Notes under the pieces: generated by a model
Databases searched by the model: none
The model's input: the letters and a program-made list of their open reading frames with translations, nothing else
What the model was told of the DNA's origin: nothing
Shown here: positions 1,195 through 13,441 of the stretch, piece after piece
How the letters are laid out: each line of letters starts with the position of its first letter
Numbering within the stretch: position 1 is the stretch's first letter
Origin: a virus
Direction: 5' to 3' (one strand)
Length of the DNA: 64,000 bases
Virus record (IMG/VR): IMGVR_UViG_3300017917_002938
Location: 99,544 to 163,543 of that record
Translations under genes and position numbers: made by a program

Positions 1195-1217
1195 AAATTT
1201 CTCCGTTTAATGATTAC

Positions 1218-1247
1218 ATTATATCTATAACGAGAAATTAAATCAAC
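1218..1247 (-). promoter_or_regulatory. Early sigma70-type promoter, repeat copy
   Basis: Minus strand GTTGATTTAATTTCTCGTTATAGATATAAT: TTGATT-17bp-TATAAT. Confidence 0.8.
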
Positions 1248-1249
1248 AT

Positions 1250-1276
1250 AAAAAAAACGCCCCGTACGGGGCGTTT
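1250..1276 (-). terminator. Rho-independent terminator after pqqA
   Basis: AAACGCCCC-GTAC-GGGGCGTTTTTTTT on minus strand. Confidence 0.85.
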
Positions 1277-1278
1277 GG

Positions 1279-1350
1279 TTAACGATTTGCGATATACATC
1301 GTAATCTCAAACCCAAATCTCATATCCACTGCTTCTGGCTTAGTCCACAT
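1279..1350 (-). CDS. pqqA: Coenzyme PQQ precursor peptide PqqA (23 aa)
   Basis: Manual translation [23 protein letters not shown]; WxxP...D(L/M)RxGFE(V/I)TxY pattern with the ExxxY pair; AAAGGAG RBS; own terminator; below the ORF-track size cutoff. Confidence 0.92.
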
Positions 1351-1440
1351 ACCGATCTCCTTTGTGAAAAACGTGTACAAAGGTACACGTAATATATTGC
1401 TTAGTTTAAGCGATAGTCACATACAGAAAATCATTAATTA

Positions 1441-1962
1441 CTAACTATTAAGGACTCGCGACACAGATGTAATGACTGCAGCAATACGACCAATATCACG
1501 GAGTTGTTCAACCGTGTAACCTTCCTTCTTGAGCGTGTCGTAGTGTGCCTTGACACAGAAATGACATTTACCTACAATCGAAGCAGACAGGCTATACGCT
1601 TCAAATTTTGCTTTAGTAGTACCACCGTGATTAGCAATCGCGTTCATTCGTAGTTGAGCGGGCAACCCTTTCAGGCTTTCATCCTCGGCCATTTCAACGT
1701 AAGGATACCAAACGTTATTTTGCGCCATGATACTAGCTGCAATCATTGCTGGGTCGTAATTTACTCCCTCAGCTCCTAGAATGGTACCAAGCCATCCTAC
1801 CAACTTACCGTTACCTGTAGCAAATGCTGCTGCCATAGCACAAAGAGCGGCTTCCTCTTTATCCAAAGTGCTGCGTTTCAATACCGCATCTAAGTTAAGT
1901 TTAGTATCCTTGGCATACTCAGGGATACTATCCTTGAGTTGGTCTACCCAATCTAAATTCAT
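1441..1962 (-). CDS. ahpD: Alkyl hydroperoxide reductase AhpD (CMD family)
   Basis: IPEYAKDTKLNL N-terminus, SIVGKCHFCVKAH CxxC/His motif, downstream of ahpC. Confidence 0.9.
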   Translation of the reverse strand: MNLDWVDQLKDSIPEYAKDTKLNLDAVLKRSTLDKEEAALCAMAAAFATGNGKLVGWLGTILGAEGVNYDPAMIAASIMAQNNVWYPYVEMAEDESLKGLPAQLRMNAIANHGGTTKAKFEAYSLSASIVGKCHFCVKAHYDTLKKEGYTVEQLRDIGRIAAVITSVSRVLNS

Positions 1963-11597: not shown

Positions 11598-11884
11598 TAT
11601 GCGGTCTCCTCAATCAACCCCAGACACTCCAGCACTCGAATCTCGGCCATATAGTTCTTCCCACCGATGTGCCAGCGATGGAGCCCCATGGGTGTGGTAT
11701 ACTCTTTCCAATCGTAGATCGTGGCGATCGTACCGTCTTCAAACTCCAGGCACCATTCACAGGTGGTTTTATCGCCACCCAGAGAATCAGGTTCCCCGAA
11801 CACCTCTACCAGGCGGTGGTAGTAGGTTTCCACGTAGCCGACTCGGCCGGTCATATTAGGGTTTGCGTCTTTGGTGAATTTCAT
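11597..11884 (-). CDS. Conserved phage hypothetical protein
   Basis: LVEVFGEP...EW...ATIYDWK...WHIGG pattern. Confidence 0.7.
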   Translation of the reverse strand: MKFTKDANPNMTGRVGYVETYYHRLVEVFGEPDSLGGDKTTCEWCLEFEDGTIATIYDWKEYTTPMGLHRWHIGGKNYMAEIRVLECLGLIEETA

Positions 11885-12171
11885 ACAATCTCCTTACCAT
11901 CGGACGTTACCAGCACCATTTCTTCGCTTTCACGTCTATCCATCATTTCACTCAGAATGAACTTCGCGCGATTGAGTTGCTTGCGAACGTACTCGTTAGA
12001 GTTAGGGGAAGGGATGGTTGGATTATTCATCTCGATCATCTCTTGGCAATCGGACAAGATACCCATCACCACCATTTCCAAACCGGAGAACTTAGCGGTA
12101 ATGGATTCCATGTATTGTCTACGGATCTCAACTTCTGTCATACCGTAGCAGCGCTTTTCAAATTCAGTCAT
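11881..12171 (-). CDS. Hypothetical early protein
   Basis: Start trimmed to MTEFEKRCYG after cassette RBS. Confidence 0.7.
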   Translation of the reverse strand: MTEFEKRCYGMTEVEIRRQYMESITAKFSGLEMVVMGILSDCQEMIEMNNPTIPSPNSNEYVRKQLNRAKFILSEMMDRRESEEMVLVTSDGKEIV

Positions 12172-12176
12172 TTCAT

Positions 12177-12232
12177 TTCCTTTCTCATTCATCATAAGAA
12201 TAATTATAGAGAAATGACGAAATTAAATCAAC
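12177..12232 (-). promoter_or_regulatory. Early promoter + RBS cassette, repeat copy
   Basis: GTTGATTTAATTTCGTCATTTCTCTATAAT-TATTCTTATGATGAATGAGAAAGGAA. Confidence 0.85.
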
Positions 12233-12241
12233 CGCTTTTTT

Positions 12242-12475
12242 CCTCACAGAATCCGTGGGGTCTCCAATACCTTACTGAGCCGTATGGGTATTGGAGGGGA
12301 AAAGGTGCCTGTTTTTAGATCATGCCCAGGCTCGATCCTGCTCTTAAACACCGGACGGATTTGGCAGCCGTTACCGTCCTACTATGGGGCGCCTTTTGGT
12401 CCTTTAATACCGAGGTGGATCTCACGTAAGAGATAAGCCACCGATACCCCGTACTCCAACCCCTCCCGGGGTGTC
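12242..12475 (+). ncRNA. Candidate structured ncRNA or ssDNA-structured element
   Basis: Seven adjacent or nested inverted repeats in a GC-rich gap with no credible ORF; imperfect pairs are G-U on the plus strand. Confidence 0.45.
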
Positions 12476-12700
12476 TTATAGACCGGCTTCTACAATAGCC
12501 TTGGCTTTAGCAAAGTAGATAGAAGCGTTGGTCTTGGTGATTTTGAGGTCTTCTACCATCACCTGGATGATTTCATCCTTAGGCAACAGACCATTCACAC
12601 GGAACAACTCCACCGCTACAGCCAACTTGGTGCCGGCCTTGGGCGCTCGCTTGAACACGTACTGCTTACCTTTGAGCTTGGTTACGGATTCGATTTTCAT
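12476..12700 (-). CDS. Small basic putative DNA-binding protein (paralog of 6522-6998 C-terminus)
   Basis: AAGGAG RBS; first gene after a promoter cassette; shared motif. Confidence 0.65.
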   Translation of the reverse strand: MKIESVTKLKGKQYVFKRAPKAGTKLAVAVELFRVNGLLPKDEIIQVMVEDLKITKTNASIYFAKAKAIVEAGL

Positions 12701-12705
12701 GGTTT

Positions 12706-12756
12706 CTCCTTATTCACTATACCTCTATTATGGATTCTACCGGAAATTAAATCAAC
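12706..12756 (-). promoter_or_regulatory. Early promoter + RBS cassette, repeat copy
   Basis: GTTGATTTAATTTCCGGTAGAATCCATAAT...GAATAAGGAG. Confidence 0.75.
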
Positions 12757-12905
12757 TGAATTCATGACTAAAGAGCCCCTTTTCTGCTTGATTTAATTTA
12801 TGAGTCTGAGCCAGACTTCAGAATTCTTCTGAGACCCTCTTCTCCCAGGAGCTCTCCAGGCAGAGCATTATTCCCAGAGCATTTCCCTATTTTCTTCTGT
12901 AAATT

Positions 12906-12913
12906 GCTAAATA
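12906..12913 (+). promoter_or_regulatory. Late promoter variant for the only plus-strand gene
   Basis: GCTAAATA, about 30 nt before the AGGAG RBS/ATG of 12944. Confidence 0.5.
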
Positions 12914-12943
12914 AACAAATCTAATTCATTCAGGAGCCCGTCC

Positions 12944-13441
12944 ATGTACTTTTTCTATCTCACCAAAGACTCTATCATCATTACTGAGGAGAGGTTAAAG
13001 CATGAGCAAATACAATCGACCAAAGACTATGACAATATTGACAAGATCGTAGATCAATTGAAGAGGACTTATAAAGATTGTTCTATTGATAGACGTGTCA
13101 AGGTCAAGAGACAATTTGGATGGAAGTATTGGTCTGATGAAACCAAAGAAAAGAGTAGGAAAGCCATTTCCCGTTCTCTGACTGGATTGTTAAAGAGCGA
13201 GGAGCACAAGAGAGCGATCTCTCTGGCCCGTAAGGGTAAAGGTAACTTTACCGGTAAGAAACATACTGACTATACTAAAGCACTTCTATCTCATGCCAGA
13301 CGAGGTAAGGATCCTATTAAAGGTAAACGTTGGTGTCATAATCCTTTAACCGGGGAAGAGAGACGTCTCTATGAGTTAATTGAAGGATTTACTTGGGGTC
13401 GTTCACCAGAAATCAAAGATTACTTCGGTCGTTGGCGTTAA
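12944..13441 (+). CDS. NUMOD3-repeat DNA-binding protein (homing-endonuclease-like)
   Basis: SDETKEKSRKAIS, KSEEHKRAISLARKG, GKKHTDYTKALLS repeats; C-terminal KRWCHN...GFTWGR. Confidence 0.7.
   Translation: MYFFYLTKDSIIITEERLKHEQIQSTKDYDNIDKIVDQLKRTYKDCSIDRRVKVKRQFGWKYWSDETKEKSRKAISRSLTGLLKSEEHKRAISLARKGKGNFTGKKHTDYTKALLSHARRGKDPIKGKRWCHNPLTGEERRLYELIEGFTWGRSPEIKDYFGRWR

Follow-up and report, generated by a model that had tools for sequence, protein, structure and literature searches.

The closest described parallels to the element reported here are small RNAs and RNA folds of phages and bacteria. RNA C and RNA D of bacteriophage T4, the species 1 and 2 stable RNAs, are small non-coding RNAs that lie within the T4 tRNA cluster on the strand of the tRNA genes and derive from the precursor transcript of the tRNAs; the end of rnaC is a canonical GGUUCGAAUCC T-arm. 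The put RNAs of phage HK022 are structured RNAs of 70-80 nt in phage early transcripts, upstream of terminator-like structures, and form two stem-loops right after PL and PR. H-type pseudoknots with an A-rich third loop, as in the preQ1-I aptamers and the T4 gene 32 leader, share the order stem 1, 1-nt loop, stem 2, loop, stem 1', A-rich loop, stem 2'. Bacteria also have small RNAs derived from 3' untranslated regions. A published set contains 10,006 viral RNA motifs (PMC10690425), and the function of T4 RNA C and RNA D is still unknown (PMC9697503).

The present element lies in the window, a 64,000-nt stretch of DNA that forms the final 64 kb of a 163.5-kb IMG/VR virus record. This record encodes a T4-type DNA polymerase, a gp41-type helicase, a gp46-like nuclease subunit and a tail sheath; identity of the polymerase to its counterparts in GenBank phages reaches about 50% at most, cyanomyoviruses being the nearest. 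The carrier is a T4-like uncultured phage, with nearly all of its genes on the minus strand. A first-pass annotation had singled out the segment 12242-12475 as non-coding, heavily base-paired and richer in GC than its surroundings. The segment does sit between two minus-strand ORFs, in a gap of 280 nt, and its GC content is somewhat raised (0.475-0.525, against about 0.40-0.42 in the flanks). A repeated early promoter cassette, with five further copies in the genome, occupies the final 40 nt of the gap (12196-12236). The borders of the gap are formed by:

12476-12700, minus strand: upstream gene, 74 aa, of no family, with the RNA element in its 3' untranslated region
12203-12231, minus strand: early sigma-70-type promoter of the next gene, TTGATT-17-TATAAT, a 10/12 match
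11881-12195, minus strand: downstream gene, 104 aa, of no family

No relatives of the upstream 74-aa protein were found in IMG/VR. The segment had also been described as close to the only strand switch. Its nearness is true, but the plus-strand gene in question (12944-13441) is a NUMOD3 homing-endonuclease-like ORF and marks no divergence point. In its 165-aa product, two NUMOD3 motifs (E 7.8e-11) are present and a nuclease domain is not recognisable, and the homing-endonuclease-like gene is possibly degenerate. Some 150 nt upstream of it, at 12788-12799 on the plus strand, the -35 portion of the early cassette recurs in inverted form, TTGATTTAATTT, and no matching -10 was seen for it. Elsewhere in the genome (G000:C1:56754-68299, outside the window), the early-gene strand carries 29 tRNA genes as well as a permuted tmRNA. 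The tmRNA (locus L194, 477-846) is of the betaproteobacterial type (RF01850, 154.6 bits; RF04321, 146.1 bits; ARAGORN tag ANDERFALAA), which suggests that the host may be betaproteobacterial. The tRNA cluster, at 59.6-68.3 kb of the genome, is about 43 kb from the element, at about 111.9 kb.

Homologs of the downstream gene were found at 272 loci, of which the best 80 were kept. The upstream gap was measurable in 75 of these 80 and had a median of 75 nt, corresponding to the promoter cassette alone, so that the structured segment is an accessory insertion at this place. Within 3 kb of the homolog, the element was absent from the 80 kept loci except L014, where a 110-nt stretch 79% identical to the gap lies 2 kb downstream, rather than upstream, of the homolog. 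Pattern scans of IMG/VR and JGI metagenomes yielded six sequence variants of the conserved core, all in phage-like contigs: that of the window; that of the L087/L092/L100 group (also L110-L116); and those of L193, L098 (on the same contig as L014), L101 and L109. A covariance model, CM R1, scores the relatives at 68-105 bits and the window at 84.5 bits. It detects no second copy in the phage's own 163.5-kb genome, and the element is present once per genome. With only six variants, statistical power is low.

Wider searches were negative. A strict pattern gave 0 matches in 185,579 bacterial and archaeal genomes (GTDB, one per species), and a GTDB scan with the 19-nt block GAGCAGGNTCGAGCCTGGG returned 40 chance matches, none homologous by CM R1, the best of which (25.5 bits) was in Ktedonobacter. 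Neither the gap nor the core matched any of 50,697 GenBank phages by blastn, and three looser patterns in IMG/VR recovered chance matches or already known members only. The GAGCAGGNTCGAGCCTGGG block occurs in three 101-nt matches from one Arsenicibacter MAG (L150 3541-3641, L182 2381-2481 and L186 5584-5684), each at 16.7 bits; they represent an element repeated within this MAG, and the CM scores show no relationship to the phage core. The first reading had recognised no tRNA, tmRNA or riboswitch, and in agreement with it ARAGORN reports 0 genes in the window, and the window has no match to Rfam 15 at gathering thresholds. At E up to 10, Rfam 15 gave unrelated snoRNA, miRNA and viral matches only, differing from variant to variant, and a search of the related loci returned tRNAs only. 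The motif is real, new and rare, and belongs to no Rfam 15 family.

Conservation within the segment is limited to about 80 nt, at approximately 12306-12382. Read as minus-strand RNA, this core opens with two pairs and an A.G mismatch, continues with the 6-bp stem of a hairpin termed Pb, its loop and the returning stem strand, and then passes through a linker into a 3' domain. Its parts are:

12306-12382, minus strand: conserved RNA core, comprising a 5' hairpin, a linker, a probable 3' pseudoknot domain and an invariant ACAGGCA end
12353-12379, minus strand: hairpin Pb, stem 12374-79 with 12353-58 (GGACGG/CCGUCC), 15-nt loop with ACGGCUGCCA
12350-12382, minus strand: two-pair extension of Pb beyond the A.G mismatch, 12381-82 with 12350-51, both G.U in the window
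12317-12338, minus strand: helix Pc, GGAUCG (12333-38) with UGAUCU (12317-22), consensus GGRNCG/UGNYCY
12306-12316, minus strand: A-rich run AAAAA, then CAGGCA, without variation among the six variants

Among the variants, the Pb loop has 13-15 nt with ACGGCUGCCA invariant inside it, and the linker has 9-11 nt, the last of which are GAG. The 3' domain reads CAGG-RNCGAG-CCUG-GG, then 3-5 variable nt, UGNYCY and AAAA(R)ACAGGCA.

In the MAFFT alignments A2, A7, A8 and A9, the Pb register was lost for either the window or L193. Pairing in Pb was therefore counted on an anchor-based alignment scripted from the stored sequences. On this alignment, all 36 of 36 Pb cells are paired, with variation at every pair. 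The two-pair extension is paired in five of the six variants (as C-G, G-C, U-A or G.U), L193 having C.A. For Pb and extension together, 46 of 48 cells are paired, as compared to 32.1 +/- 2.3 in shuffles (0/2000 as high) and 7-24 in slid controls. Helix Pc is 96.7% paired, against 30-61% in slid controls, and includes two double-changed pairs (A-U/G-C and U-A/A-U).

The comparison of L193 with L087 is especially direct. Their flanks (upstream-gene end, downstream hairpin and terminator-like site) are near-identical, and all six Pb pairs are exchanged between them. In the 3' domain of L193, a U-A pair is flipped to A-U across sites 17 nt apart, with an A-U/G-C exchange adjacent to it. This difference in the core looks like cassette replacement by recombination. 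Comparison of L193 (935-1200) with L087 (3400-3600) also gives 65 nt extra between the stop codon and the core. Taken together, the compensatory changes in six phage variants support the presence of a structured, non-coding element with a core of about 80 nt.

The 3' domain can be drawn in more than one way. As an alternative to Pc, a hairpin Pa (CAGG/CCUG, 12337-40 with 12327-30) can form, with three of its loop bases pairing to GAU downstream; this model of Pa plus a 3-bp pseudoknot fits as well as the Pc model. The terminal CAGGC can pair with GCCUG (12327-31), giving an H-type pseudoknot, and RNAalifold chooses this GCCUG/CAGGC pairing. A competing contact joins the 3' GGCA to the UGCC of the Pb loop (12363-66). 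These 3' segments never vary, and both the GCCUG/CAGGC and the UGCC/GGCA contacts are candidate pairings. Judged from sequence, a pseudoknot with an A-rich loop is probable in the 3' domain, whose segment order is that of the H-type pseudoknots named above. In contrast to the preQ1-I aptamers, the core has no expression platform or regulated gene downstream, and its putative stem 2 is invariant. The element likewise differs from the gene 32 leader pseudoknot in that it does not adjoin gene 32, nor does it adjoin que genes.

Several known identities were considered for the core and rejected. A preQ1-I riboswitch is not supported: with E allowed up to 10, RF00522 still gives no match to a 111-nt slice, and the core does not precede a regulated gene. 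What lies 3' of the core is hairpins and a promoter in the window, tRNAs in L101 and L109, and a terminator and then an apparent promoter in L193. A disguised tRNA was suggested by the T-arm-like hairpin CAGG-RUCGAG-CCUG, but its loop has 6 nt and acceptor pairing is lacking; where T4 rnaC has its canonical T-arm, the present core carries RUCGAG or GACGAG. The linker triplets UAG/UAA do not amount to a conserved stop codon or a recoding signal, since the register differs among variants, L087 has AUG, and the upstream ORFs, apart from L109, end before the core. A terminator composed of GCCUG/CAGGC and UUUU does not hold, as L101 and L098 lack the U run. The DNA palindrome CAGGnTCGAnCCTG is not retained as a protein site, as L193 breaks the palindrome and compensates 17 nt away. 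Short ORFs cross the core in the window (36 aa, GTG start, 12315-12425, minus strand) and in L109 (79 aa, 1208-1447, plus strand, ending at the UAG of the linker); they are in different frames, making a shared coding feature improbable.

The first-pass annotation had described seven helices across the whole segment. These are real for the window, as the plus-strand MFE fold of 12242-12475 reproduces each one, but only two of the seven are conserved. The remaining ones lie around the core:

12300-12397, unstranded: long-range helix, 12300-09 with 12388-97, in the window, with a 6-bp version in L098
12262-12296, minus strand: perfect 10-bp hairpin, just 3' of the core in the sense direction, behind UUUUCCCC
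12242-12260, unstranded: small hairpin CCUCAC/GUGGGG (plus strand), window-specific, U-G on plus and C-A on minus
12414-12475, unstranded: two hairpins between the upstream-gene stop codon and the core, window-specific, with no counterpart in relatives

For the long-range helix, no clear counterpart was found in L087, L193, L101 or L109. At the place equivalent to that of the 10-bp hairpin, the L087/L100/L193 group has a hairpin of different sequence after AUUU(U)CCCCC, the same U4C4 stretch; the L087 and L100 versions differ by a C-G to U-A change. The plus strand of the segment folds at -88 kcal/mol (z = -2.68, with 1/200 shuffles as good), and the minus strand folds less well (z = -1.55). 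By comparison, the 88-nt core alone is not unusually stable in the six variants under nested folding, with z from +0.3 to -1.3 for the sense and from +0.3 to -2.0 for the antisense strand. The above-chance folding of the segment thus comes mostly from the window-specific flanking hairpins, and the structural evidence for the core is comparative rather than thermodynamic. In sum, the anatomy first described holds for the window, and its centre alone is of importance.

The position of the core changes among lineages, and its orientation does not: in all of them it is that of the neighbouring genes. Four lineages (the window, the L087 group, L193 and L098) have the core behind a stop codon, where an early transcription unit ends; in L101 and L109, it heads a tRNA cluster. 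Upstream ORFs stop 9-86 nt ahead of the core, L109 excepted. The L101 locus (record G001) carries on one strand a promoter TTGATT-17-TATAAT (894-922), the core (948-1025), which begins about 20 nt past the promoter, and tRNA-Trp (1088-1161), with tRNA-Tyr, Asn and Cys following on the same strand after a gap. In L109, the 5' half of a tRNA starts 19 nt 3' of the core. L092 and L193 have a sense-strand terminator-like hairpin with a U run about 75-100 nt 3' of the core, identical in sequence between the two.

Two of these loci have further peculiarities. In L109 (1505-2123, OGVY01004167.1), the phage-like, AT-rich DNA that carries the core runs into GC-rich sequence that looks, on reading, like a bacterial gene for a membrane protein. 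The join falls inside the tRNA, whose 5' and 3' acceptor strands are unpaired and which ARAGORN misses; the junction is either real or the product of chimeric assembly at a tRNA. In record G001, a 700-nt gap (L191, 1162-1854) divides the tRNA cluster between tRNA-Trp and tRNA-Tyr; on the opposite strand of this gap lies an ORF of 130 aa (1379-1771) without a Pfam hit, a layout that recalls segB within the T4 tRNA cluster.

These placements resemble those of known small RNAs in part. Like T4 RNA C and RNA D, the L101 and L109 cores lie inside a tRNA cluster, on the tRNA strand and directly upstream of tRNA genes, whereas the cores of the window, L087, L193 and L098 lie outside one. CM R1 gave no match in the T4 tRNA region (L117, T4 69000-75000) at E up to 1, nor was similarity apparent by eye. 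With no match to the rnaC/rnaD region, the T4 parallel is positional only. As in small RNAs derived from bacterial 3' untranslated regions, a stop codon stands 5' of the core in the window, the L087 group, L193 and L098, and L092 and L193 have their terminator-like site 3' of it on the same strand. Unlike such RNAs, the window has no U-rich terminator, and the L101 element has its own promoter.

It is likely that the element belongs to the minus strand, together with the early genes. The promoter and tRNA-Trp of L101, the terminator-like sites of L092 and L193 and the co-orientation with genes all point this way, against the earlier proposal of an antisense, plus-strand RNA. The unpaired stretches of the core are A-rich in the minus orientation, and A-rich unpaired stretches are usual for structured RNAs. 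Five of the six variants have G.U as end pairs of Pc, and the opposite strand would have A.C in their place.

The reading that best accommodates these observations is a module that may be cut from early or tRNA transcripts and persist as a small stable RNA, to which we assign a probability of roughly one half. The RNA module of about 80 nt would be read on the minus strand with the early genes and excised from the primary transcript, a course in which we infer transcription, processing, stability and partner alike. Where a tRNA lies 3' of the module, RNase P would cut at it; where a hairpin or terminator does, this would block 3' exonucleases. The resulting stable small RNA would act through its invariant single-stranded loop and its pseudoknot, binding a protein or another RNA. 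A single copy, a place at the end of a unit or the head of a tRNA cluster, a strongly structured 3' neighbour, an invariant loop on a changeable stem and a pseudoknot-like domain that does not vary best fit an excised RNA that binds a partner. Against excision as a small RNA, no tRNA is near the core in the window. An intrinsic terminator was also looked for on the minus strand of 11800-13000, and none was found there, and so none behind the window core.

The main alternative is that the minus-strand RNA acts solely in cis, either as a processing or stability signal for the flanking RNAs or in antitermination. In the latter case it would bind RNA polymerase, as do the HK022 put RNAs, which make the enzyme resistant to termination, and would take early transcription past the hairpins, terminators or tRNAs on its 3' side. 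Five of the six lineages have strongly structured RNA immediately 3' of the core, in the form of the hairpins 12262-96 and 12242-60 in the window, the hairpin and terminator-like site of L092/L193, and the tRNAs of L101 and L109; its single copy per genome and its closeness to the L101 promoter are also consistent with a cis role. Such a role nevertheless appears unlikely. The core combines a hairpin with a pseudoknot-like domain, unlike the put RNAs, and has a promoter directly upstream in L101 only, four lineages having it behind a gene and away from a promoter. As a separate promoter appears to serve the next gene both in the window and in L193, read-through seems unnecessary there.

A further possibility builds on the UGCC/GGCA contact. 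If the UGCC of the Pb loop docked on the 3' GGCA, the core could adopt a compact double-pseudoknot fold, represent a new class of phage RNA, and serve as a factor-binding cassette that passes from one T4-like phage to another and boosts or protects tRNA and early transcripts. Candidate factors, of host or phage, would include RNase P, RNA polymerase and defence nucleases that attack tRNAs. We regard this fold and role as quite unlikely.

Similarly improbable is a plus-strand non-coding RNA directed against the early genes, as first proposed. The better plus-strand fold of the whole segment speaks in its favor, as do the wobbles noted in the first pass: three window-specific helices (12242-60, 12443-75 and the long-range helix) do contain a position that is U-G on plus and C-A on minus, and the C.A of the Pb extension in L193 would likewise become U.G. 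None of the three helices is kept in relatives, however, and in the helices that covary the wobbles run mostly in the opposite direction, with Pc ending in A.C on the plus strand in five of six variants and the unpaired stretches becoming U-rich. The remark that no plus-strand promoter is visible was accurate, as no promoter-like site occurs on the plus strand in 11800-13000. What can be found is a weak antisense promoter-like site (9/12) in L098, at 7469-7440, and a weak plus-strand terminator-like site inside the core, at 12375-12391. On the opposite strand, tRNAs lie 58 nt (L101) and 19 nt (L109) from the core, leaving little room for a promoter and, in L109, where the nearer neighbour is the tRNA 5' half, none for an antisense one.

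It is very unlikely that the element is a selfish or accessory DNA insertion, MITE-like or a recombination cassette, whose hairpins would serve its own movement and which would have no RNA function for the phage. Its patchy presence near the downstream-gene homologs and its differing placement relative to shared genes fit such an origin. So do the 10-bp inverted repeat 12300-09/12388-97 that bounds the core in the window and the change of core between the nearly identical flanks of L193 and L087. The inverted repeat is absent in four lineages, however, one copy is present per genome, no target-site duplication is seen, and an invariant loop on a stem that is free to change is typical of a presented RNA loop.

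Least tenable is a DNA-level signal, be it a replication origin, a packaging site (both raised in the first pass) or a folded single-stranded DNA element: hairpin potential and an early-region position beside a plus-strand gene would suit it, but GC skew is negative across the region and the whole window without a turn, the gap is GC-richer than its flanks and has neither iterons nor an AT-rich unwinding stretch, its only repeat being the promoter cassette, the adjacent plus-strand gene is the NUMOD3 ORF, the element is missing at this place in most relatives, and the U-A to A-U compensation across 17 nt in L193 needs single-strand pairing, which counts against an origin or packaging site.

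The rarity of the element, with six variants, and its restriction to uncultured carriers limit its immediate value. Few phage-encoded structured RNAs exist, and T4 RNA C and RNA D are still without an assigned function after fifty years. Here, the core is a compact, strongly conserved module that shifts position among T4-like phages and has twice come to head tRNA genes. It offers a defined object of 80 nt for work on stability, processing, antitermination and factor binding.
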